64,000 nt of DNA from Escherichia phage skuden. The notes under the pieces are model-generated. The model did not search any database. It saw nothing but the letters and a program-made list of their open reading frames with translations, and was not told where the DNA came from. Every line of letters begins with the position of its first letter. The stretch's first letter is position 1. This document shows, piece after piece, positions 42,380-57,848 of this stretch. The position numbers were made by a program, and so were the translations under genes. The stretch lies in sequence record MN850585.1, one strand, 5' to 3'.

Positions 42380-42900
42380 AAGGGGGCTAGCATTTACGTA
42401 ACTTTATAGCCTCTTTTACGTAACTTTTAAGCTACTTCAAAGTAACTTTATAGCCCCTATAACATACTTTTTAGTGACTATCAAGGGGGTTGTTTAGTTA
42501 TTCACAAGAATACTAATGAGATGATAAAGCTTACACCCTTATAAGATTCTTTTAAGGCTCTGGGAAGCTTTATAAAGGGCTTTTAAGGGTGAGGTAATGC
42601 AATCCCTTAAGTTAGGTTGATAAGGCTGTTATAGGGCGTTATAGAGCGTTTAAGGGGTTGCCCTTCCCTTTCGGGTTATGGGCTTTTATTTAAGTTGATT
42701 TGATAAGAGGTTATAGAGTAGACTATAGAGTTATTGTTTTTAAGGTATGAGATAGGTTCTATCGAATCAGTGGGAAGATTCTGGAAAGGAAAGGGAAAGG
42801 GTTGTATAAGGAATTTGATAGGACGTAAAAAAGCCCCTATGAGATAGATTCTATTGAATCCATATATAAAGGGGCTGTAAAGGTATCTGGGGCTATTTAG
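42380..42900. repeat. second repeat-rich non-coding segment (TTATAG(C/A)G, AAGGG(G), GGGCTT motifs)
   Basis: clusters such as GTTATAGGGCGTTATAGAGCG and GAAAGGAAAGGGAAAGGG; ORF-free. Confidence 0.5.
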
Positions 42901-42914
42901 CCCCGTTGCGTCGA

Positions 42915-43163
42915 TTAGTTAGTGCCTTCTTTGTCGTAGTACAGGGAGACGATTTTTTCACCCCAATAGTGATATGAATAGCCCTCTTTGAGAACTTCCT
43001 GTTTTGTTTCTTTCCAGAACTCATCTGAAGGATTATAGTCTTTGATGGTCTGACTGATAAGAACTTTCACCATTTCAAAGGCGTTATCAGTACCCACAAG
43101 GTCGAATTTAACATCCAGAGAGTAGAAGCCAAATTCGTTAACAGTTGCGCGGATAGTTGCCAT
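42915..43163 (-). CDS. small hypothetical protein (cassette-array gene 1)
   Basis: 82 aa; conserved upstream cassette with RBS AGGAGACTCTAAA-ATG. Confidence 0.5.
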   Translation of the reverse strand: MATIRATVNEFGFYSLDVKFDLVGTDNAFEMVKVLISQTIKDYNPSDEFWKETKQEVLKEGYSYHYWGEKIVSLYYDKEGTN

Positions 43164-43228
43164 TTTAGAGTCTCCTAGTTTAAGGACTTTACTTAGTGGG
43201 GAGGTTATCCCTCCCGTTGATTAGTAAT
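43164..43228 (-). repeat. intergenic cassette family A (GC hairpin GGGAGG-TTAT-CCTCCC + conserved RBS)
   Basis: near-identical to copies at 43493, 44089, 44654, 45874, 46922. Confidence 0.65.
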
Positions 43229-43492
43229 TTACTGCATGTTGGCGTATGTTGCAAGCCTTTTTTCGTTGTATTTTGTAAGAATCTCACAAGATAAAACATC
43301 ATATTTTGTAATAGCGTTGCCTTTTTCGAGGTCAAAGAATCCAAACGTTTTACCATCTTTGAATCCGACAACTTCGTAAGACTCTTTGATGATTTCACCA
43401 TTGAACAAATCACTTTCGATGCGGTGAATTAATGCTACGTTTTCTTTGTCGGTTGCAATTTGTAAAAGTTTGGTTAATTCTACGTTTTCCAT
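43229..43492 (-). CDS. small hypothetical protein (cassette-array gene 2)
   Basis: 87 aa. Confidence 0.5.
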   Translation of the reverse strand: MENVELTKLLQIATDKENVALIHRIESDLFNGEIIKESYEVVGFKDGKTFGFFDLEKGNAITKYDVLSCEILTKYNEKRLATYANMQ

Positions 43493-43557
43493 CTTGATGC
43501 CCCTAGTTTAAGGATTTTATTGAGTGGGGGAGGTCATCCCCCCCGTTGATTGACAAT
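43493..43557 (-). repeat. intergenic cassette family A copy
   Basis: GTGGGGGAGGTCATCCCCCCCGTTGATTGACAATTTACAG. Confidence 0.65.
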
Positions 43558-44088
43558 TTACAGATTTTTGATTGTCTCGTCAATATCTTTTTCAATATCT
43601 CTCAAAGTTTTTTCTAAGTTCTGGATATTGAAAGATAAACCTTCTCCCAGTGTCTTAGAGTAACCGCTAGGACGTGAGTCATAGAGTTCGATTTCTTCCA
43701 CTTCGAAGAGACTAACCAAATCACCGCTTACATTGTAAGCCATTGAAACAGTATTTACAGGGGCTTTATAGAACTTGTTTAAAAACTTGATAGAACGCTC
43801 GTAAGCCATTTTATAACTGTTTAAAAGGCTTTTAACGTGTTTGTGAACGTTTTTACACTCATCTAAGTAAAGCCCTAAAAACATCGGGAGAAGTTCCGCG
43901 ACAGCTTGCATAAAGTGAGAGACTGCAACGGTTGCAACATTACGACGATGAACGTAATAAGCCCCGTTTTCTGATTTGGTGATGGTTGCGAAGTGTACCC
44001 CATTGCAGCGAAATTCATAGGTATCTTTAACAGGCTTAGACATTACAGCACTTGAACGAATGTAATTGATAGCTTTGAACTTGTTCAT
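43558..44088 (-). CDS. hypothetical protein (cassette-array gene 3)
   Basis: 176 aa. Confidence 0.5.
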   Translation of the reverse strand: MNKFKAINYIRSSAVMSKPVKDTYEFRCNGVHFATITKSENGAYYVHRRNVATVAVSHFMQAVAELLPMFLGLYLDECKNVHKHVKSLLNSYKMAYERSIKFLNKFYKAPVNTVSMAYNVSGDLVSLFEVEEIELYDSRPSGYSKTLGEGLSFNIQNLEKTLRDIEKDIDETIKNL

Positions 44089-44165
44089 TTTTGAATCTCC
44101 TAGTTTAAGGATTTTACTTAGTGGGGAAGGTCATTACCTCCCGTTGATTAGTAATTTACTTGTTT
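44089..44165 (-). repeat. intergenic cassette family A copy
   Basis: TTTTTGAATCTCCTAGTTTAAGG...GTGGGGAAGGTCATTACCTCCCGTTGATTAGTAATTTAC. Confidence 0.65.
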
Positions 44166-44311
44166 TGATATCTGATTGCAAGCAATTTTTTTAGTTTATC
44201 TTTAAAGAAATCTTTTAAGTGAATCCCTTTAAGATAAACCCCCTCGAACAAAGTTACCAATGTCAAGAGGGATTGTCAACACTTTTTTAAAAGTTTTTTG
44301 TAAGTTGTTGA

Positions 44312-44653
44312 TTAACTGATGAATATTTTTTCAGGTTTTACATAGCTGATACGTTGGTTTTTTAGCAGGTCATCCCAGACTAATGCGGCGATATGGGAAT
44401 AACCGGATTCACGTAATAACTTCATCGTTTTACATCTCGTTTCAAATCGGGTTGCATAGAACTCGCTGTTTAAAGTCGTTTTCTTCCCTTCGTTGTCTGT
44501 ATGGATAATCTGCATCACTTGGAAGGGGCTTGTTTCCTCACCTTTATTCCATTGCTCAAAGTATTTTAGGCACTGCATAGGTGTCATCTTGTCACTTACT
44601 TGAGTTGACCAAGATGAATCCGGTTTATTGGTAATTACAGTTACGTGAGCCAT
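44312..44653 (-). CDS. hypothetical protein (cassette-array gene 4)
   Basis: 113 aa. Confidence 0.5.
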   Translation of the reverse strand: MAHVTVITNKPDSSWSTQVSDKMTPMQCLKYFEQWNKGEETSPFQVMQIIHTDNEGKKTTLNSEFYATRFETRCKTMKLLRESGYSHIAALVWDDLLKNQRISYVKPEKIFIS

Positions 44654-44725
44654 TTTTGAATCTCCTAGTTTAAGGGCTTTTATGTAGTGGGGAGGTCATC
44701 CCCCCGTTGATTGACAATTTACAGA
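44654..44725 (-). repeat. intergenic cassette family A copy
   Basis: same hairpin and RBS context. Confidence 0.65.
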
Positions 44726-44741
44726 CTTTTATCAGGCTTGT

Positions 44742-44975
44742 CTAGTCTTTTTCTATGATAATTTCATATTGACCATCAACACTGTCAAAATAGATTCCGT
44801 CGTTGTCTTCTGTCTTAAAGTAACACTGAATGTCATCACTGGCGGGGTAGTCTTGTCTTGCTATCTGACAGACCTGAATGGCATTTTCTTTACTTCCTGT
44901 AAACTCGCCAAGCCCTTTAAAATCGCATGAATGGCCATTACAAATTGAGAGGATGAGATAAACGGTTGTGAGCAT
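44742..44975 (-). CDS. small hypothetical protein (cassette-array gene 5)
   Basis: 77 aa. Confidence 0.5.
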   Translation of the reverse strand: MLTTVYLILSICNGHSCDFKGLGEFTGSKENAIQVCQIARQDYPASDDIQCYFKTEDNDGIYFDSVDGQYEIIIEKD

Positions 44976-44988
44976 GATTTAAGCCTCC

Positions 44989-45008
44989 TAAAAGCCCCTA
45001 CAAGGGGC
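44989..45008 (-). terminator. hairpin terminator overlapping RBS of gene 44742..44975
   Basis: minus-strand RNA GCCCC-TTGTA-GGGGC then TTTTAGGAGG. Confidence 0.45.
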
Positions 45009-45041
45009 TGAATAGTGTTTATAAGGTGATTGTATGGGTTT

Positions 45042-45584
45042 TCAGAAAAAGCTCTTTAAATCCTCTTCTGCGATGTTTCCCGTTAGTGTGTCCATGATGT
45101 CGCAAAAAACCTGAATACTGTCGGACTGTTGAACACTTTTAGCGAGAAGCTCCAGAGACTCATCAAGATAGTTTAAATTCGGGTTATCCAGTGAAGGGAG
45201 ACAAAAAGGCGAAAACATAGCATTAAATTCAGTGATGTAAACCTTTTTAATCCAATTTAAATCGAAGTATTCTGTAAAACTTGCTACGCCAGCCATATTA
45301 TCACAAGAATAATCATCATTTAGCTCATCTTCTGGAATATCAAGTTCCAAGATAACAATGTTTTGAGTTTTCATCTGGAAAGCTGCGGTGATAGCGGCAT
45401 TACCTAACGCTTGCTGGATACCTTCAGAGATTATCTCTTCCTCATCGTCGCCATAGATTTTATTTTCTGGGTACACGTAAAAATTGCCGTCCATATCCGA
45501 ACAATTCCATGCACCTGATGGCTTGTCACCGTTATTAATCAGGTTGAGGAAATTTTCTTGAGTAGTACCGTGAAAGCATTTCAT
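45042..45584 (-). CDS. hypothetical acidic protein (cassette-array gene 6)
   Basis: 180 aa. Confidence 0.5.
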   Translation of the reverse strand: MKCFHGTTQENFLNLINNGDKPSGAWNCSDMDGNFYVYPENKIYGDDEEEIISEGIQQALGNAAITAAFQMKTQNIVILELDIPEDELNDDYSCDNMAGVASFTEYFDLNWIKKVYITEFNAMFSPFCLPSLDNPNLNYLDESLELLAKSVQQSDSIQVFCDIMDTLTGNIAEEDLKSFF

Positions 45585-45669
45585 TTTTGAATCTCCAGTT
45601 TAGGATTTAGTGGTAAAGCTCTTTATCTGGGGCTTACTTTATCGAACTATAAGCCCCTTGTAAAGTACT
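45585..45669 (-). repeat. intergenic cassette family B (hairpin GGGGCTTA-13 nt-TAAGCCCC, palindrome AAAGTACTTT, conserved RBS)
   Basis: about 85-bp element, near-identical copies at 46395, 48239, 48585, 49056; variant at 47635. Confidence 0.65.
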
Positions 45670-45873
45670 TTATTTGTTATTTTTTACAACTTTTAAAACC
45701 GCACGATAACCTAAGCAATAAGAATCACCGAAAAGAGTCCTACCCATGAAAGAATCCTCTTTTATATCCTTTGCAGTGACAGTTTTTTCTACGCCGTGAA
45801 AGAGAACTACATCACCAACTTTAATATCTTTGATGTGTGTAGTTTCAATGGTTAAACCGTTAATAATAGCCAT
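45670..45873 (-). CDS. small hypothetical protein (cassette-array gene 7)
   Basis: 67 aa. Confidence 0.5.
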   Translation of the reverse strand: MAIINGLTIETTHIKDIKVGDVVLFHGVEKTVTAKDIKEDSFMGRTLFGDSYCLGYRAVLKVVKNNK

Positions 45874-45950
45874 TTTTGAATCTCCAGTTTAGGACTTTAT
45901 TTAGTGGGGAAGGTCATTCCCACCCCGTTGATGTGTAATTTACTCTATCT
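45874..45950 (-). repeat. intergenic cassette family A copy
   Basis: GTGGGGAAGGTCATTCCCACCCCGTTGATGTGTAATTTAC. Confidence 0.65.
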
Positions 45951-45974
45951 AAAAACCAGTGTCAACAAAAATTT

Positions 45975-46394
45975 TTAGAGTTCTGCATAAATTGCATCAC
46001 AGACATCACGAAAATCGTGATTTGTCAAATTACGTTGTAACCAAGTGGCAAAGAAATCAGCGATTGCAAAATTAGCGTCATACTCGACGGATAGCCATAC
46101 TTTAACAGCAAACCGAAACATTTTCAAATCAAGCTCTTTATTCATTACCTTAGATTTGCCTAACATGTCGGACATTTCATATTGTGCACCGTCTAGCGTG
46201 ATACCTGCTGCAACGTCAGCCAATGAGTTTTTTACGTTTTCAACGTCTAAGATAACGCTTTGAATCTTCCCAATAATGTTGTGCAATGTCTCATCAGGCG
46301 CTGATGATGTCAGAACATTAATCCGGTTAACGGTCAAACGCGCTTTTAAGATTGATAACTCACGGTTATTAATAGCCATTTTTAAGTTCTCCAA
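45975..46394 (-). CDS. hypothetical protein (cassette-array gene 8)
   Basis: 139 aa. Confidence 0.5.
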   Translation of the reverse strand: MENLKMAINNRELSILKARLTVNRINVLTSSAPDETLHNIIGKIQSVILDVENVKNSLADVAAGITLDGAQYEMSDMLGKSKVMNKELDLKMFRFAVKVWLSVEYDANFAIADFFATWLQRNLTNHDFRDVCDAIYAEL

Positions 46395-46465
46395 TTTAGG
46401 ATTTAGTGGTGAAGCTCTTTATCTGGGGCTTACTTTATCGAACTATAAGCCCCTTGTAAAGTACT
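46395..46465 (-). repeat. intergenic cassette family B copy
   Basis: conserved B-type sequence. Confidence 0.65.
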
Positions 46466-46738
46466 TTATACTAAATGCAGCTTTTTACCTTTTACTATGA
46501 TGTAACTCGATGCGCTATTGCTTTGCACATCCTGATAAATTCTGCGCAAACGGCCTTCGTAGTATACTTTCCAACTGGTTGGAATCTTTTTCCCATATCC
46601 TGTAGCAGTTTTTTGTAGTCCTGCAAGTTGCCAATCTAAGATATGTTGTTCGGCTTGTAAATCCTCGAAGTGCATTACACCGTTCACATAGTGACGAAGG
46701 GTTACGTTTAAGGTGCGACCGTTGTTAGTAGTATACAT
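46466..46738 (-). CDS. hypothetical protein (cassette-array gene 9)
   Basis: track ORF 46466..46780; probable start MYTTNNGRT at 46738 with AGGAG RBS. Confidence 0.45.
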   Translation of the reverse strand: MYTTNNGRTLNVTLRHYVNGVMHFEDLQAEQHILDWQLAGLQKTATGYGKKIPTSWKVYYEGRLRRIYQDVQSNSASSYIIVKGKKLHLV

Positions 46739-46762
46739 TTTAAAAGCTCCTAGTTTAAGGAT

Positions 46763-46921
46763 TTTATTTTGACAGTTCACTAATTAAGACATCAAAGATT
46801 ATATCATTATCTGCTACAGTTGCAACACCAGTGATATAATCAATTTCTAAGATAACAACAACTTTCGTACATAAACCGTCATCTATATCATTCCAGACAA
46901 CTTTATCACCTGCACAAAACA
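46763..46921 (-). CDS. small hypothetical protein, 52 aa (below ORF-track cutoff)
   Basis: hand-translated MFCAGDKVVWNDIDDGLCTKVVVILEIDY...; preceded by family A cassette and conserved RBS. Confidence 0.4.
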
Positions 46922-46995
46922 TTTTTTGAATCTCCAGTTTAGGACTTTATTTAGTGGGGGAGGTCATCCCCTCCCCGTTGATGTGTAATTTAATC
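46922..46995 (-). repeat. intergenic cassette family A copy
   Basis: GTGGGGGAGGTCATCCCCTCCCCGTTGATGTGTAATTTAATC. Confidence 0.65.
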
Positions 46996-47011
46996 TATCT
47001 AAAAACCAGTA

Positions 47012-47344
47012 TCAAGAATTTTGTTTTCGTTTGCTCAATTCTTGAACAATTACAGCGTAGTAGTCTTTTAAGTCACTGATATTTAAAGCATTTATCAGAG
47101 AATTATAATCATCAACTAACTGGAAATCATCTTTGAAGATGTCACTTACCTGATAGGTTTTTGCCTTATATCTGAAGCTCATCTCTAGCCGCTTTATTTG
47201 CTCATCACTTAAACGCCCCAGAAAGCTCTCTACAAGGTTATTGCTAACCTGCTGTGTAATTGCCTTATTTGCTAGATTATAGGCTTTATATGCCTTATAA
47301 AGCGCGAAAATGGCAATGATTGCAGTGATGCCAGTCATTAACAT
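47012..47344 (-). CDS. small membrane protein (cassette-array gene 11)
   Basis: 110 aa; N-terminal TM MLMTGITAIIAIFALYKAY. Confidence 0.5.
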   Translation of the reverse strand: MLMTGITAIIAIFALYKAYKAYNLANKAITQQVSNNLVESFLGRLSDEQIKRLEMSFRYKAKTYQVSDIFKDDFQLVDDYNSLINALNISDLKDYYAVIVQELSKRKQNS

Positions 47345-47634
47345 GGTGTTTCCTCTTTACGTGATACTTTGCCATTTACAGTTATCTCATAGGATTCTAA
47401 TAAGTCGTTTTTAGACTTTACAGGGCTTTTAAAAGTATTATCGTAAATATTGACTTGCAATACAGGGTTTTTATACTCCCTACAACTATTCCATAAGCAA
47501 ATCACTACACGACGGCCTTTTATTTTTCCGTGTAACCATTCCATAACATCATGGCTATTTCTTGATGTCTCGATAAAATCAATTTTGTTAAGTAACTTGC
47601 TTAGATTTTCACGGACTTTATTTGATAATTTCAT
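47338..47634 (-). CDS. hypothetical protein (cassette-array gene 12)
   Basis: 98 aa. Confidence 0.5.
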   Translation of the reverse strand: MKLSNKVRENLSKLLNKIDFIETSRNSHDVMEWLHGKIKGRRVVICLWNSCREYKNPVLQVNIYDNTFKSPVKSKNDLLESYEITVNGKVSRKEETPC

Positions 47635-47725
47635 TTTTGAGTCTCCTAGTTTAAGGGTTAATTTGATAAAGCTCTTTATCTGGGGCTATCATATCAGCTT
47701 GTTAGCCCCGTGTAAAGAGGTCTAT
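47635..47725 (-). repeat. intergenic cassette family B variant
   Basis: shares RBS and AAGCTCTTTATCTGGGGCT core; hairpin arms diverged. Confidence 0.55.
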
Positions 47726-48238
47726 TTAGTTCTTAAAGATATTCATCACTGAATCTTTTAATGCTTCCAAACGTTCTAATACTTCAGCCTCTGCGTCTGA
47801 ATTGCTCACCTCTTCTTTTAATCTATCTTCTAAATCCTCACCGTCACTATAGCACCAATCAAAGGCATATCCTAGATAAAAACTCTCTAAAACCGTGTTG
47901 CCATTTGCGTCGATAACTTTCGCGGCAAGGTTGTATTCTGAAGCTTCTAAATCTCTTTCTAGTTCTTTCTGTAAGCTGATGTAAGCCTGTTTTGATGGGT
48001 TTTCCCGGCCTTGTTTTGCATAGTCACTAGAAAGCTGTTTAAGGCTATAATTTAAAGGGATTGCATATTTAAAATCGTTACGCTGACAGTTAGGATTTTT
48101 AATAGTCACGCCGCCTTGATGGTCGTCTGTAAATTCCCAGCCATCAAGATTATGGCTTGCTTCATAACAGTTTACGGCTTCAAAGATGATAGAAAATTTT
48201 TCTTTTACAACTTCAAAGGTAGCTTCTGCAGTTTTCAT
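47726..48238 (-). CDS. hypothetical acidic protein (cassette-array gene 13)
   Basis: 170 aa. Confidence 0.5.
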   Translation of the reverse strand: MKTAEATFEVVKEKFSIIFEAVNCYEASHNLDGWEFTDDHQGGVTIKNPNCQRNDFKYAIPLNYSLKQLSSDYAKQGRENPSKQAYISLQKELERDLEASEYNLAAKVIDANGNTVLESFYLGYAFDWCYSDGEDLEDRLKEEVSNSDAEAEVLERLEALKDSVMNIFKN

Positions 48239-48326
48239 TTTTGAATCTCCAGTTTAGGATTTAGTGGTAAAGCTCTTTATCTGGGGCTTAAGATATCAAC
48301 TTTTAAGCCCCTTGTAAAGTACTTTA
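48239..48326 (-). repeat. intergenic cassette family B copy
   Basis: conserved B-type sequence. Confidence 0.65.
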
Positions 48327-48584
48327 TCAGATTAAATTGCCAGTTAATGATAAGTGCATTTTATAACCTTTTTTGGTAAAAACGTTCACTTTACCGAGTG
48401 ATTTTACACCTTTAAAAAGGTTGTTTGAACTACGTTTTAAGGTTAAATGTTTATCAACCTTTACACCCCATCTTACAGCAGATTGTTTCCCGTTGTCAAC
48501 CACTTTCCCACATAACTTTTTAGCCATAACGCGAGCGTCATCACGAGTTTTTGCAGGAACTACAACGTTTTTGATAATAGCCAT
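48327..48584 (-). CDS. small basic protein (cassette-array gene 14)
   Basis: 85 aa. Confidence 0.5.
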   Translation of the reverse strand: MAIIKNVVVPAKTRDDARVMAKKLCGKVVDNGKQSAVRWGVKVDKHLTLKRSSNNLFKGVKSLGKVNVFTKKGYKMHLSLTGNLI

Positions 48585-48674
48585 TTTTCAGATTCTCCAA
48601 TTTAGGATTTAGTGGTAAAGCTCTTTATCTGGGGCTTACTTTATCGAACTATAAGCCCCTTGTAAAGTACTTTA
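48585..48674 (-). repeat. intergenic cassette family B copy
   Basis: conserved B-type sequence. Confidence 0.65.
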
Positions 48675-49055
48675 TTAGTTAATTTTGAAAATTGTCACAT
48701 AACCATCACTCCCGATGATTTGTGATACCCCAGCTTTTTCTACTTGATAGCCCATGTTTTCAAGATGGTAAACAGCATCATCATAACCATATGCGCCACC
48801 CTGATAACGTCGCTTATCACATTTTATCAGGTTTTTACCGCGTCCAGCAAGTGCATTCAGTACGGCTTTTTCACTTGAAAGTGTACCATCTATCATGGTT
48901 GCCGTGTAATGGTTGATTTTATTCCCATTAATATCATACTTAAAATTGAATGCGTGAACAATAATCAATTTACCGTTAAATTTTTCATCAAGTGACTTCT
49001 CCAGTGCGTTGCGAAAGTTGTCTTTGTTGATGAATTTAGGTGCACGATATGCCAT
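48675..49055 (-). CDS. hypothetical protein (cassette-array gene 15)
   Basis: 126 aa. Confidence 0.5.
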   Translation of the reverse strand: MAYRAPKFINKDNFRNALEKSLDEKFNGKLIIVHAFNFKYDINGNKINHYTATMIDGTLSSEKAVLNALAGRGKNLIKCDKRRYQGGAYGYDDAVYHLENMGYQVEKAGVSQIIGSDGYVTIFKIN

Positions 49056-49141
49056 TTTTGAATCTCCTAGTTTAAGGTTAGTTAGTAAAGCTCTTTATCT
49101 GGGGCTTACTCTATCGAACTATAAGCCCCTTGTAAAGTACT
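49056..49141 (-). repeat. intergenic cassette family B copy
   Basis: conserved B-type sequence. Confidence 0.65.
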
Positions 49142-49348
49142 TTATTTATCGTAGTAGTAAATTGCTGTCTGTCTTATGTACTTTCTTGTATTTCTTGTAA
49201 GGTAGCAATTAGAGTTTATAGCTGTTTCTACATAGTTGCAATAGTCAGCTTCTGATATTCTAGACCATACGTCACATACTTGCATGTAAAAACGTTTTGC
49301 CTTTGTGTTAACGTTGGTTGTAACCATCAATTCGCGACTGTACATCAT
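49142..49348 (-). CDS. small hypothetical protein (cassette-array gene 16, first in transcription order)
   Basis: 68 aa. Confidence 0.45.
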   Translation of the reverse strand: MMYSRELMVTTNVNTKAKRFYMQVCDVWSRISEADYCNYVETAINSNCYLTRNTRKYIRQTAIYYYDK

Positions 49349-49589: not shown

Positions 49590-49790
49590 CACCTGCACCC
49601 ACCTACCTGCACAATTCTAAAATGATTTTTCTTGCCCGACCTGAGCGGGGTCTGCACGTTTTGAAAATGAAAAAGCTCTTTGGAGATTACCTGCACAGTT
49701 TGAAAATGAATTTTCTCTTTGGAGTTCAAAATTCTCTCTACAGATTTCTCTACAGAACTCTACCTGCACAATTCTAAAATGAAAAAGCCC
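49590..49790. repeat. four degenerate direct repeats of about 25 bp containing CTGCACA(A/G)TT(C/T)(T/G)AAAATGA
   Basis: copies near 49604, 49650, 49693, 49759 in the intergenic region upstream of the cassette array. Confidence 0.6.
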
Positions 49791-49855
49791 TCCTTACCTG
49801 AAAAATTTACCAGATAAGAAAGGCTTAGTCTATTGTGAATATTCTACAGGGTTTC

Positions 49856-50641
49856 TTAGTTCTTTGCGTCTAAGAAGGTAACTTCTGGTGAAGAGAAAAT
49901 TTCCTCAACATCCTCATCAGTTCTTGCATAGATATATGTATCTGCATCACTGCCAAATGTTACTGCAATCCTGTGATTGCTCTTCGACAGGTGGGTAACT
50001 AGAGCGTTACTTAGAGACATCTTTTCAACCGGAGGGTTACTTTGATGTACCTTACCTTTTCTTCGTCTGAAGAGGGTAACTGTGTCGTCTATGAACACTA
50101 CTACACCTGCAAAGTATTCTGGTTCACAGTAATTCTTCCAACCTGAGCGTAACTTGTGGTACATCTCTCCTTCGTAGACATACAGATAAACATCTACACT
50201 CTTCATCACCTGATTAATGATAACTGTGACGGCTTGAGGGTCTAGTCCACCGATACCTGCACCAATCATAGGTAAGCCAACTTTCTTCAACTGATTAACT
50301 TCACAGTATCTGTTAAGTTGCTTCAAAGATGACTCTAAAGCACTGTATCGGGCATCTTTACCAGTCTTAAGCTGAGTGTAAAGATTGGCTATACGGCCTT
50401 GTTTTAAACGTGCTACAGAGAAATTGCCTAGCAAATTTTCACAGGGTTTGTGACCTATACCACCTGCATACAGATAAACTTCTGTATCGGTCTCATATGC
50501 TTTTGGGTAAAGTTTAGAAATCTTATCAGCGATACCTGCACCCATTAAGTTCATACAGTTGCAACCGTGACCAATAATATCAAACTTACCTTTATCAAAT
50601 GCTGAGAAGATATCCCCATTGATGATTTTTACAATACCCAT
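49856..50641 (-). CDS. macro-domain protein (ADP-ribose binding/hydrolase fold) with C-terminal domain of unknown function
   Basis: 261 aa; GDIF...DIIGHGCNCMNLMGAGIADKI and GLPMIGAGIGGLDP match macro-domain motifs. Confidence 0.6.
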   Translation of the reverse strand: MGIVKIINGDIFSAFDKGKFDIIGHGCNCMNLMGAGIADKISKLYPKAYETDTEVYLYAGGIGHKPCENLLGNFSVARLKQGRIANLYTQLKTGKDARYSALESSLKQLNRYCEVNQLKKVGLPMIGAGIGGLDPQAVTVIINQVMKSVDVYLYVYEGEMYHKLRSGWKNYCEPEYFAGVVVFIDDTVTLFRRRKGKVHQSNPPVEKMSLSNALVTHLSKSNHRIAVTFGSDADTYIYARTDEDVEEIFSSPEVTFLDAKN

Positions 50642-55402: not shown

Positions 55403-55481
55403 CTTATTACTCTCTCTTGTTAGTTAATAAATCATTTTGTGAGGCTATTCTAAGGGGCTTCAAAACCCCTTGTCAAACACT

Positions 55482-57848
55482 TTAATCGTAAATTGTAGTT
55501 CCTTCTGGAACACACTTCACATCAAAACCTAAGAACTTACTCACTTCGATGGGTGACACTTTATTCCAATCTAAATGAGAAAGCAAGAAGTTTTCTTGTT
55601 TTCTTTTTGAAAGATAGTTTGTCAGTTTGATAACCATGCGGTCACCCGCTTTCTTAATCTTTTTGTACAGTTTTGTATCATTGTCAAGGCATGACTTCAA
55701 ATCCTGAAGAACACTGATAGTGTAAGTGTATGCAAACGGTGCAGCCACATACTGAATCTTACCAAAAATTGCCTCAACAGCATTCTCATTGCCTTCTAAG
55801 AAGATGGTTTTGTTTGTATCTCGTGAATAGCAATACCCGCGAGAAATCTTCTTGTTATTAAACGTAAAGTTTCTGGCAATAATCCAACTACTTGTAAGGT
55901 CAAGGACACCATTCATATAGATACGTGTCATATACCTATTATGATTAATCCAGTGAACATCAGTTAAGCTGTCATTCAATAGTTTCTCATCTACTTCAAT
56001 CCAGTCTTCTGGTATCTTTTTCCAATTTGCTTTTCGGAAAACATAGACTGTTTTTCCTATAACATTAGCAATTGTTTTAGCTACATCTTCTGGGGATGAG
56101 CAAAAACATTCACCATCAACTGTGTCACCTACTGCCTTGATATAAAGTTGGGGTTCTTCAATTGTATCTAGGTCTTCTGACACCTCTGTGTATGAAGCTT
56201 TAGTTTCTGATGGAACAGCTTTCCAGAGTTTTACAACACCCCTCACAGCTTCTTTACGCTGATAGTGGTGTTCCTTATCAGACATCTTCACAATCTTTAA
56301 CAAGCTTTTATCAAGTTTATGCAGATTGATTAGGTCGTCTAACTCTTTCTCAGTAGAGAATACAAAGACGATACCATTGTATCTGTGAAACAGACTTGAC
56401 TCACTGGCATAGTCTCGACATGCACCACGCAAGATTTGATTGCGTCCTACAGTCTTCTCAGTACCGTTTTTATTGCGACGGTCATTGATAACAAACAAAA
56501 ACTGTTCAATTTGGCTTTTACGCATTGCGCCAAAGATATTGAACATACTTGCCTCTTGAGTGTAGGAAAGCGATGTTGCACGAATCTTACTCTCTAAAGA
56601 GTTGAACTTAACATAAGCAACTGGATTATAAAGATAATCTACTTTAGGGATGTTGTTTCCGTTCCTATCAACCTTAATATTACCTTTACCGTCACGTTCA
56701 TAGATGACTGAGCCATCTTCTGCGTAGATAATTCCACGACGAATGTTTAGTAATTCTTCTTCCAGAGAATCAAGCTTAACACCACCCCACTCCAGCTTTG
56801 GACACACAGCATTAAACATCTCTCGTGAGTTCAAGCGTAACTCAGCATAAGCCTGTGCAGCATCCATGAGTGTAGGTTGACTATTAACTTTCTTGATAAC
56901 ATCCTTTGTAATTGCTTCAGTTATCTTTTTAGTAGCCTCAATGATAACATTTTTTGTTGTATCATTCATCTGCAATGCTTCACGAGAAGCTGCAATAGCA
57001 ACTGAACCAATAGGCATGTAGATGTTTACAAGGTCTACGCTCCTACGGAAAAATTCTGGTAAGACTTTGAAGAAATCATCACCAAGTAATGCTTCCATGT
57101 TAACAGGGTAGGCAATGTTACCCATCACCACATTAAACTCTGTCCTGTTACCACTAGAACGCCAGCTTTGCTTATGAATCATGGCATCATAAACACCCTC
57201 TTCACGGGCAATGACGTTCATATCTGCTAATACATCGTCGTACACAATATTACTTTCTGGTTTTACAGCAAAGTATGAGTATACATTACCAGCTTCTTCA
57301 AAGAACTTTGAGATACGGTGGTCAGCAACTGCTACACGTACAGCTAAACCATTAGGTTCTTTTGTTGGGTTGGTGGTCAGCTTAGTTACTTGAGGGATAC
57401 CATTCTCAAGATAAACAGAGTACTTATTAACAACACCGTCAACATAGCTAGACACTGTGAATGACTGAGCAATTGCAAATGGTGATTTTGAGCCGATACC
57501 CATTGCACCAATGTAGTCATTAGAGTCATTCTTCGTAGAAGCTCCATAGTTTAGGTACAAACTCATAACTTTATCATGAGTCAATCCAGTTCCAAAATCA
57601 CGAACTTCAAAGTAAGGCTCAAAACGAGTAGGTAAATGCACATGGAACGGGATGTTTTCTTTTCCAGCTTCTTTCTGAGCATCTACTGCGTTACATGATA
57701 GTTCACGAATTACTGCTCGCTCTTTAAATGTATATACACCAGAACTCAGAAGGCTGAACATTTCAGGTGTCATTGTAATCTGTGCTTGAGATGTCTCCAA
57801 AGAAGTTGAACTCTTAATCACTTCTGCGTGGTCGTTTACCATGCGCAT
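55482..57848 (-). CDS. rIIA: rIIA protein (GHKL/HSP90-like ATPase domain)
   Basis: 788 aa; RAVIRELSCNAVDA, RDFGTGL, IGAMGIGSKSPF match GHKL boxes and T4 rIIA N-terminus as recalled. Confidence 0.85.
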   Translation of the reverse strand: MRMVNDHAEVIKSSTSLETSQAQITMTPEMFSLLSSGVYTFKERAVIRELSCNAVDAQKEAGKENIPFHVHLPTRFEPYFEVRDFGTGLTHDKVMSLYLNYGASTKNDSNDYIGAMGIGSKSPFAIAQSFTVSSYVDGVVNKYSVYLENGIPQVTKLTTNPTKEPNGLAVRVAVADHRISKFFEEAGNVYSYFAVKPESNIVYDDVLADMNVIAREEGVYDAMIHKQSWRSSGNRTEFNVVMGNIAYPVNMEALLGDDFFKVLPEFFRRSVDLVNIYMPIGSVAIAASREALQMNDTTKNVIIEATKKITEAITKDVIKKVNSQPTLMDAAQAYAELRLNSREMFNAVCPKLEWGGVKLDSLEEELLNIRRGIIYAEDGSVIYERDGKGNIKVDRNGNNIPKVDYLYNPVAYVKFNSLESKIRATSLSYTQEASMFNIFGAMRKSQIEQFLFVINDRRNKNGTEKTVGRNQILRGACRDYASESSLFHRYNGIVFVFSTEKELDDLINLHKLDKSLLKIVKMSDKEHHYQRKEAVRGVVKLWKAVPSETKASYTEVSEDLDTIEEPQLYIKAVGDTVDGECFCSSPEDVAKTIANVIGKTVYVFRKANWKKIPEDWIEVDEKLLNDSLTDVHWINHNRYMTRIYMNGVLDLTSSWIIARNFTFNNKKISRGYCYSRDTNKTIFLEGNENAVEAIFGKIQYVAAPFAYTYTISVLQDLKSCLDNDTKLYKKIKKAGDRMVIKLTNYLSKRKQENFLLSHLDWNKVSPIEVSKFLGFDVKCVPEGTTIYD

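Follow-up and report, generated by a model that had tools for sequence, protein, structure and literature searches.

Promoter-early stem-loop (PeSL) cassettes have been described from the T4-like phages RB49/phi1, PST/T4 and nt-1/KVP40 (Arbiol et al. 2010, PMC2839356; Comeau et al. 2014, PMC4122927). They had both promoter and terminator activity in reporter assays (PMC2839356), and they formed mini-circles, small circular DNAs that arise by recombination of neighbouring copies (PMC2839356; PMC4122927). For phage Felix O1, the genome paper (Whichard et al. 2010, PMC3185647) recorded a 57-bp repeat, CTTTACATGGGGCTTAAAAGTCTGTAAAGTAAGCCCCAGATAAAGAGCTTTACCACT, and a 39-bp repeat, TTGACACTGGTTTTTAGATAGATTAAATTACACATCAAC, only as direct repeats between genes 15/16, 19/20, 18/19 and 20/21; no function was proposed for them, they are absent from the five promoters listed there, and the organisation of transcription around the terminators was stated to be not known. 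In this study, we analyzed a stretch of 64,000 nucleotides (nt) of Escherichia phage skuden (MN850585.1), hereafter the window, in which small genes are separated by repeated intergenic elements of two families, A and B. The 57-bp repeat corresponds to family B and the 39-bp repeat to the promoter part of family A. The elements look like a previously unrecognised PeSL analogue in the Ounavirinae, a design described earlier only in T4-like phages, and we put at roughly 70% the probability that they are promoter-hairpin-leader cassettes of the PeSL type, their promoter and RNA effects being deduced from sequence. No paper calling these elements PeSL-like was found in a literature search, which did not reach the phiEa21-4 genome paper (Lehman 2009).

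The 6.7-kb block showed up to 95% identity to 254 phage records, essentially all of them Felix O1-like myoviruses of Escherichia, Salmonella, Shigella and Citrobacter. By this similarity the window is that of a Felixounavirus (Ounavirinae), a virulent Felix O1-like phage, and the Felix O1 counterpart of the block comprises open reading frames (ORFs) 15-23. A preliminary description of this DNA had reported 16 co-directional small genes on the minus strand at 42915-49348, with one of two kinds of conserved element in 12 of the gaps, and both statements agree with what was found here. The ORF list gives the same genes, encoding proteins of 52-180 amino acids (aa), which in the order of transcription are of 68 (g2), 126 (g3), 85 (g4), 170 (g5), 98 (g6), 110 (g7), 52 (g8), 90 (g9), 134 (g10), 67 (g9b), 180 (g11), 77 (g12), 113 (g13), 176 (g14), 87 (g15) and 82 aa (g16), all counted from the ATG after the leader. 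The 12 gaps hold six elements of family B, including a variant upstream of g6, and six of family A, and every sequence detail given earlier was located: GGGGCTTA-13 nt-TAAGCCCC, AAAGTACTTT, ATCAACGG, CACTAA and the leader CCTAAACTGGAGATTCAAAAATG. With profiles made from these copies, all 12 elements were recovered at E values of 1e-15 to 1e-21, and a profile search of both strands of the 64-kb window and of the relative pEP20 (complete genome, 88.7 kb) revealed nothing comparable outside the block. The profiles otherwise matched palindromes against themselves and, upstream of rIIB, a single weak B-like element (55484-55421). All copies lie in a single orientation in a single block, each placed precisely between the stop codon of one gene and the start codon of the next, and the array is far beyond chance. 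The B relative outside the block, situated between rIIA and rIIB (55421-55484, minus strand), reads TAAAGTG-TTGACA-aGGGGTTTTGAAGCCCCt-TAGAAT, a predicted promoter with a GGGG...CCCC hairpin in its spacer.

Each element was found to contain a sigma-70-type -35/-10 pair, which had been overlooked in the preliminary description. Family B has TTTACA, 17 nt and then TAAAGT, TATCTT, TATGAT or TAGAGT; the stop codon of the upstream gene lies within TAAAGTA directly before the -35 box, and a hairpin of 8-9 bp, GGGGCTTA...TAAGCCCC, occupies the spacer and reaches into the -10 box. Family A has TTGACA, TTGATA, TAGACA, TTGCAA or TTGACG, 17 nt and TAAATT, followed by ATCAACGG and then by the hairpin, which starts 2-5 nt past the predicted transcription start. 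A consensus scan passed all six B copies and four of the six A copies in the same register; the two A copies outside it carry TTGCAA-17-TAAATT and were read by eye.

Conservation was analyzed in 74 B and about 64 A copies from 15 Ounavirinae genomes of four genera. Among the 34 distinct B copies, CTTTACA is invariant, likewise the T, the A and the final T of the -10 hexamer, and the other loop letters vary; TAnnnT is spaced by 17 nt in 68 of the 74 copies and by 18 nt in five more. In family A, T.G is invariant at -35 and TA...T at -10, the 17-nt spacer is specific to the slot, and the -35 box is retained even in copies where it falls within the coding sequence of the upstream gene. Selection thus acts on the -35 and -10 letters, and fixed hexamer letters with fixed spacing and a free spacer have the signature expected of a promoter, not of a terminator or an RNA motif. 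Promoter activity and start sites are accordingly assigned to both families as predictions. Invariance extends also to the leader and to the start region, which is AGATAAAGAGCTTTA in B and ATCAACGG in A. Three other roles for the B sequence were considered and rejected. Some B copies contain TGCTTTACA or TGCTTTA, reminiscent of a MotA-dependent middle promoter, but here the box lies at -37 to -30 with a 17-nt spacer, whereas in MotA middle promoters about 12 nt separate the -10 box from a TGCTT box centred near -30. No -10 box lies at a usable distance from the downstream CTTTACC box, which speaks against a second promoter there, and the AAAGTACTTT palindrome is a poor operator candidate, as it varies among copies (AAAGTGCTTT, AAATTGCTTT, AGACCTCTTT).

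The 74 B copies comprise 35 distinct hairpin sequences, all with folding energies of -10 to -15 kcal/mol, and the stems of the elements are 6-10 bp overall. A covariance alignment of the copies, proposed earlier as a check, did reveal compensatory changes: in the B hairpins a standard pair is formed in 228 of 228 counted cells, one pair changes from G-C to U-A in seven copies, another passes from C-G through U·G to U-A, and the covariation score was matched by none of 500 shuffles and collapsed in slid controls. Column-based pair counting was dropped for family A because loop-length differences scramble the alignment; instead each distinct A hairpin was folded singly, and the few non-hairpin strings returned by the regular expression were ignored. 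The A hairpins differ in stem (GGGGAGG/CCTCCCC, GGGAAG/CTTCCC) and in loop (AATGA, GAAA, GGAGA), yet they still fold. The pairing is therefore under selection. Folding of the mRNA strand gives G·U pairs at about twice the frequency seen with its complement, and in 26 of the 35 B hairpins and 31 of the 40 A hairpins the more stable fold is that of the mRNA strand, an asymmetry that points to the RNA and not to a palindrome in duplex DNA and argues for selection of the hairpins on the mRNA strand. Processing sites for RNase III of the T7 early type were rejected, the stems of 6-10 bp being set against a required duplex of about two helical turns. An Rfam search of the block (E ≤ 1) gave no match.

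In ESCO45 all GGGGCT/AGCCCC arms examined have become GGTGCT/AGCACC, a compensated double change that affects four B hairpins, the terminator after g11 and the end-of-block terminator; gene conversion, site avoidance and co-evolution with a binding factor are possible causes.

Both families end in CCACTAA...CC(T)TAAAYT(A)GGAGAYTCAAAAATG, a leader with the Shine-Dalgarno (SD) sequence GGAG 7-8 nt upstream of the ATG. It occurs 14 times in the block, and no convincing copy was found elsewhere. In 162 leaders from the 15 genomes two variants are kept unmixed, CC-TAAAYT-GG with 91 copies and CCT-TAAAYT-AGG with 71; this would fit a small stem closing on the first Gs of the SD sequence, but it amounts to a single event, for which linkage over 6 nt could also account.

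Gene content of the block differs among the 15 genomes, with presence or absence recorded for g2, g3, g4, g5, g8, g9b, g11, g12 and g15 and with extra genes in Sf16 and SUSP2, and A, B or leader modules stand on the flanks of almost all of these differences. Ten junctions were read base by base. At eight of them exactly one hybrid cassette was found, whose left flank matches one cassette of the window and whose right flank matches another. Felix O1 has a B×B hybrid where g3-g4 are missing and an A×A hybrid where g9b-g11-g12 are missing, REP10 has a hybrid in place of g4-g5 and ESCO45 in place of g4, and a single hybrid A cassette marks the loss of g15 in Felix O1, pEP20, ZX4221 and humlepung (four junctions read). 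The crossovers of the g15 losses differ, being placed in the TAAATT box in Felix O1 and inside the hairpin or leader in ZX4221 and humlepung. The g8 junction is flanked by two leader copies, the loss of g2 left an A/B chimera joined in the shared ACTAA of the leader, and the two extra genes of Sf16 are bounded by cassettes. A further A/B chimera, similar to one at the end of the block, was noticed in Moogle upstream of g13.

The alleles are mosaic, identity to the window jumping between neighbouring genes, as in pEP20 (97%, then 55% for g11, then 84%). Copies at different slots of the same genome are more alike than copies of different genomes (B, 0.809 vs 0.770; A, 0.878 vs 0.852; 0 of 2000 permutations for each), and in family A they exceed even orthologous copies (0.862), so the copies are homogenised within genomes, presumably by gene conversion or repeated recombination among them. 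Family B was detected at 1456 places in 287 phage records and family A at 1218 places in 249 records, essentially all of Ounavirinae. Even in Erwinia phages family B is kept at 76-84% nucleotide identity, including the box AGATAAAGAGCTTT in Coenus, the only Erwinia phage compared, whose block proteins are 35-49% identical, and the same slots are filled by elements across genera. One record of another kind, GU169904.1 (Staphylococcus phage SA1, 147 kb), matches 73% of the block at 90.7% identity, probably because a mixed sample or assembly brought Felix O1-like sequence into it.

These comparisons support the proposal of the preliminary description that the block is a modular cassette system comparable to hypervariable early or anti-host regions, with genes individually insulated and possibly also individually exchanged. 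On both points that could have told against it the outcome was favourable: conservation extends beyond a generic terminator stem and ribosome-binding site, as seen from the missing U-tract, the invariant -35 and -10 letters, the start region and the leader, and related phages do differ in gene content with cassettes at the boundaries, a hybrid cassette standing at eight of ten junctions.

According to the PeSL-type reading, each cassette would consist of the upstream stop codon in an A/T-rich stretch, a host sigma-70-type promoter, a G/C-rich RNA stem-loop and a common 5' leader with an SD sequence. The B transcript would start just past the hairpin, at the A of CCCC-A-GATAAAG; because the start falls after the hairpin by standard -10-to-start distances, the B hairpin would form only on RNA arriving from upstream, where it could attenuate read-through or cap a 3' end. 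The A hairpin could play a double role, as the 3' hairpin of the upstream message and as the 5'-terminal hairpin of the downstream message; 5'-terminal stem-loops protect E. coli mRNAs from 5'-end-dependent decay. About 13 units would be expressed independently by the host polymerase right after infection. The near-identical direct repeats of 65-100 bp would also be substrates for homologous recombination, by which single genes would be deleted, inserted or swapped; an intact cassette would always be regenerated, so that the neighbouring genes keep their signals. A more speculative addition, to which we give little credence, is that a dedicated phage factor reads the invariant AGATAAAGAGCTTTA at the predicted B start, ATCAACGG, CCACTAA and the CC-TAAACT-GG mini-hairpin overlapping the SD sequence. 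Such a factor could bring about a joint shut-off of the block after early infection or an active exchange of cassettes, and if it catalysed exchange, a virulent phage would possess an integron-like gene-capture system.

Several observations weigh against the PeSL-type reading. In such A/T-rich DNA the background of the consensus scan is high (34 sites, with 23.4 ± 5.1 expected), so it is register and conservation, and not the scan, that carry the case for promoters. In family B the 3' arm of the hairpin begins with the last T of the -10 hexamer, so that the invariance of this base is confounded with pairing, while AGATAAAGAGCTTTA, ATCAACGG and CCACTAA are invariant and explained by neither promoter, hairpin nor SD sequence. 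The compensatory changes in family B are few, being limited to two pairs, and may stem from few mutational events. The hairpins are followed by AGAUAAAG in B or ACUAAAU in A, with no U-tract in either family; they are therefore not canonical intrinsic terminators, and termination at them may be weak. A terminator scan reported none at the cassettes, though terminator-like sites were found elsewhere in the region. Two of the ten junctions are not of the cassette type, namely an internal decay of g12 and a microhomology deletion of g6, both in ESCO45, and as cassettes occupy nearly every gap, any viable deletion is likely to end near one. In the searchable literature no RNA-seq, transcription start or 3'-end mapping was found for Felix O1-like phages. 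By reverse transcription PCR of Felix O1, block ORFs 14, 17, 19 and 23 were assigned to the 25-minute class, which speaks against the reading, whereas the assignment of block ORFs 16, 20, 21 and 22 to the 5-minute class speaks for it (PMC3185647).

The hairpins without U-tracts, apparently selected on the mRNA strand, would also suit processing or stability sites on one long early transcript of T7-like type, with the hexamers incidental. Such a transcript could start from the promoter at 49426-49398: the block is headed by this one good promoter, which is preceded by an A/T-rich region, and strong terminators are confined to the two block ends. We nevertheless regard this as quite unlikely: RNase III needs duplexes of roughly 20 bp, far above the 8-9-bp stems found here, and incidental hexamers would hardly keep a -35 box invariant together with the T and A of the -10 hexamer in an otherwise varying loop, at a fixed spacing of 17 nt and across genera, or retain the A -35 box inside the upstream coding sequence. 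Ordinary terminator and ribosome-binding signals, alike only through recent tandem gene duplication, would account for a G/C hairpin after the stop codon and an SD sequence before the ATG in every gap, and one paralogous pair (g9/g9b) does exist. However, apart from this pair the proteins fall into separate blastp clusters and the 15 PHROG matches are to different families, the cassettes are far more conserved than the genes between them, their invariant positions coincide with promoter hexamers, and U-tracts and terminator-scan hits are missing; duplication of this kind is very improbable.

What promoter, hairpin and SD sequence leave unaccounted for, that is AGATAAAGAGCTTTA, kept even in Erwinia phages, together with ATCAACGG, CCACTAA and the TAAACT loop, could alternatively be a recognition site of a dedicated phage factor, whether a regulator that turns the entire block on or off, an RNA-binding protein or nuclease of RegA/RegB type with the common leader as its target, or a recombination protein by which cassettes are actively moved. 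The flanks of the B hairpin, which are AAAG-NN-CTTT near-palindromes, the concerted GGTGCT/AGCACC arms of ESCO45 in four B hairpins and two terminators, and the two leader variants unmixed in 162 copies would all agree with it. But close linkage and gene conversion can account for the leader variants and for ESCO45, the AAAGTACTTT palindrome is not conserved (variants AAAGTGCTTT, AAATTGCTTT and AGACCTCTTT), no candidate protein was identified, and a complete genome has no annotated integrase or recombinase; moreover, such a factor adds to the promoter-hairpin model and does not replace it. Recognition sites as the explanation of the elements are in our judgement unlikely, if worth keeping in mind. 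Selfish mobile elements, MITE-like or linked to the homing endonucleases present in Felix O1-like phages, would explain many near-identical copies by invasion of the gaps. This is hardly credible for elements that have one orientation in one block, always run exactly from stop to start, occupy the same slots across genera, and possess neither terminal inverted repeats nor target duplications.

The cassettes of the window, all on the minus strand, were delimited one by one. Family B cassette 1 (49056..49145, E = 2e-20) has its predicted promoter at 49136-49108 and its hairpin at 49129-49101, followed by the leader. Cassette 2 (48585..48675) has them at 48666-48638 and 48659-48631, cassette 3 (48239..48327) at 48318-48290 (TTTACA-17-TATCTT) and 48311-48283, cassette 5 (46380..46469) at 46460-46432 and 46453-46425, and cassette 6 (45585..45673) at 45664-45636 and 45657-45629. 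Cassette 4 (47635..47725; promoter 47716-47688, TTTACA-17-TATGAT; hairpin 47709-47682, GGGGCTA...TAGCCCC) is a slot-specific variant, present at the same slot in most genomes having the downstream gene g6. Family A cassette 1 (46923..47017, E = 3e-20) comprises a predicted promoter at 47015-46987 (TTGATA-17-TAAATT), a hairpin within 46980-46954 and then the leader, and cassette 2 (45874..45967, E = 5e-21) a predicted promoter at 45965-45937 (TTGACA-17-TAAATT), this promoter part being the 39-bp direct repeat of the Felix O1 paper, and a hairpin within 45930-45904. The corresponding signals are at 44744-44716 (TAGACA-17-TAAATT) and within 44709-44687 in cassette 3 (44654..44745), and at 43583-43555 (TTGACG-17-TAAATT) and within 43548-43524 in cassette 5 (43493..43584), where the coding sequence of g14 runs through the -35 box and spacer and its stop TAA supplies the first three bases of the -10 hexamer. 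The two cassettes read by eye are cassette 4 (44089..44183), with TTGCAA at 44181-44176, a 17-nt spacer, TAAATT at 44158-44153 and a hairpin within 44146-44121, and cassette 6 (43164..43256), with TTGCAA at 43254-43249, a 17-nt spacer, TAAATT at 43231-43226 and a hairpin within 43219-43196; in the latter the stop codon of g15 is in the -10 hexamer and the -35 box and spacer are within the upstream coding sequence.

The other three of the 15 gaps are a 7-nt overlap (ATGTTAA) of g6 and g7, which suggests translational coupling; the 25-nt leader alone, AATCCTTAAACTAGGAGCTTTTAAA, between g8 and g9 (46739..46763, minus strand); and a terminator-like hairpin, AGCCCC-TTGTA-GGGGCT, followed by TTTT and then AGGAGG (44990..45009, minus strand), the sole gap with signals of neither A nor B type. 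The 223-nt gap between g13 and g14 contains about 130 nt that are more conserved than the flanking genes in Felixounavirus, Moogle and SUSP2. On its minus strand there is a predicted promoter with TTGACA (44279-44274), a 17-nt spacer and TAACTT (44256-44251), the middle -10 letters of which differ between phages, and after it a 48-nt hairpin (44240-44193) with one pair changed from A-U to U-A in 4 of 10 sequences. The conserved 44193-44279 stretch may represent a small RNA or a structured leader.

The block is entered, on the minus strand, behind an intrinsic terminator with a 17-pair stem and a T-run (49785..49826), which follows the Macro-domain gene (49856-50641, about 4 kb upstream of g11), forms the upstream limit and matches t13 in Table 2 of the Felix O1 paper. 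The first block promoter, TTGACT-17-TAATAT (49426-49398), has an A/T-rich upstream region; between it and g2 lie a degenerate A-type box, CATCAGACGGGCAAGCAAGCC, and the leader (whole segment 49349..49426). In KEP1, REP10 and humlepung a full A hairpin comes after this promoter, which would drive the next gene directly. The 507-nt ORF-free stretch between the upstream terminator and this promoter contains four direct repeats of about 29-34 nt, TCATTTT(A/C)RAAnYGTGCAGGTA (49590-49800, minus strand), which look like iterons or a regulator-binding array. At the other end (42827..42908, minus strand) there is a chimeric A/B-like hairpin, CAACGGGGCT-AAAT-AGCCCCAGATA (42908-42887), with a CTTTACA box, and a long intrinsic terminator, AGCCCC...GGGGCT with TTTTTT (42876-42827, minus strand), at the position of t23 of the same table, after the last block gene. 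The chimera combines an A 5' box, B hairpin arms and a B downstream box, as if it were a remnant of A×B recombination.

The genes themselves, all on the minus strand, are distributed unevenly among the 15 genomes. g2 (49142..49348; phrog_5293, unknown function) is missing in KEP1, REP10 and humlepung, g3 (48675..49055) in Felix O1 and Moogle, g5 (47726..48238) in REP10, and g15 (43229..43492) in Felix O1, pEP20, ZX4221, humlepung and ESCO45. g4 (48327..48584), with two allele classes of about 93% vs about 70% identity, is missing in Felix O1, REP10, ESCO45 and Moogle, and g16 (42915..43163), the last gene of the block, also has two allele classes (about 90% vs about 60%). g6 (47338-47634) and g7 (47012-47344) together span 47012..47634. 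g8 (46764..46922), found in only 5 of the 15 genomes, has a copy of the leader module on either side. It is followed by g9 (46466..46738), whose length is taken from the ATG after the leader, and g10 (45975..46379). g9b (45670..45873) is missing in Felix O1, and another gene is in its slot in SUSP2 and Sf16. Of the remaining genes, g11 (45042..45584) is 97% identical to Bas63 gp107 and has an allele only 55% identical in pEP20, g12 (44742..44975) is decayed by an internal deletion in ESCO45, and g13 and g14 are at 44312..44653 and 43558..44088.

The preliminary description had found no recognisable function in the 16 proteins. This stands at the level of sequence: a Pfam search gave zero matches among them, and 15 of the 16 matched PHROGs, each a different family and all of 'unknown function', the 52-aa protein being unmatched. 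Blastp clustering kept the proteins separate except for g9 and g9b, the sole paralogous pair of the block. The lack of a recognisable function needs qualification for g11, in which a weak signal of an ADP-ribosyltransferase/RNA 2'-phosphotransferase-like fold was detected. A PDB sequence search with the g11 protein returned nothing meaningful, its AlphaFold model is of low confidence (predicted local distance difference test, pLDDT, 60.6), and a near-invariant FHGT motif is present at its N-terminus. In a preprint, Bas63 gp107 was reported to be more important on E. coli S17-1 and was independently likened to the NAD-binding domain of RNA 2'-phosphotransferase. Non-essentiality of the block genes is partly documented through the Bas63 essentiality screen, and the PhageMaP supplements were without per-gene data for the block.

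If the PeSL-type reading is correct, the use of promoter-plus-hairpin cassettes for fast-changing accessory genes is not peculiar to T4-like phages and has arisen again, it seems independently, in another major group of virulent enterobacterial phages, which includes Felix O1, Bas63 and many therapy candidates. It also offers an answer to the question left by the Felix O1 genome paper of how transcription proceeds through the region, and the model predicts 13 transcription start sites. The block is a likely location of host-range and anti-defence genes, the g11 relative Bas63 gp107 being conditionally important on one E. coli strain, and the cassettes mark natural, self-contained insertion points for the engineering of these phages.

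Compared with other known systems, the elements resemble T4 early promoters, in which many strong sigma-70 promoters each serve one or a few small non-essential genes straight after infection and the -35 box is TTTAC-like as here; generic T4 early promoters, however, are not defined by an embedded stem-loop or a shared leader. As in the T7 early region, hairpins separate small early genes on RNA made by the host polymerase, but in T7 the duplexes are long and imperfect and are cut by RNase III, and promoters are confined to the left end, whereas here the stems are of 8-9 bp and each element has its own -35/-10 pair. Integron cassettes and lambdoid morons are similar in that single genes move as units with expression or insertion signals. 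Unlike integrons, the block has no attC-type site, and no integrase is annotated in a complete relative (on the basis of annotation only); an attC system was rejected for this reason and because the G·U asymmetry points to RNA. Lambdoid morons come with unrelated promoters and terminators and are inserted through illegitimate recombination, whereas here shared flanking repeats supply the homology.

The closest likeness is to PeSLs. Common to both are intergenic motifs that recur through a hyperplastic region whose small genes have no known function, the order of a stop codon in A/T-rich DNA, sigma-70-type boxes 17 nt apart, a GGGG...CCCC stem-loop, an SD sequence and an ATG, and indels or replacements between relatives that end inside the motifs. 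The PeSL stem-loop is situated between the boxes, over the -10 box or just after it, and families B and A match the subclasses so defined; the T4/PST consensus TTTACW-N17-TAYWAT is close to family B. Six of the PeSL features that can be tested by sequence were found here: the boxes (a hexamer at 17-18 nt in 73 of 74 B copies, and T(T/A)Gnnn-17-TAAATT in A), the A/T-rich stop, the stem-loop, the SD sequence with its start codon, the hyperplastic region and the endpoints of indels. In contrast to PeSLs, the elements are hosted by Ounavirinae and have no detectable sequence relationship to those of T4-like phages, so they are to be regarded as an analogue and not a homologue. They also differ in comprising only two sharply defined families with a shared, near-invariant translation leader, in being conserved across a whole subfamily, Erwinia phages included, and in the evidence for mRNA-strand selection of the hairpins and for homogenisation within genomes.

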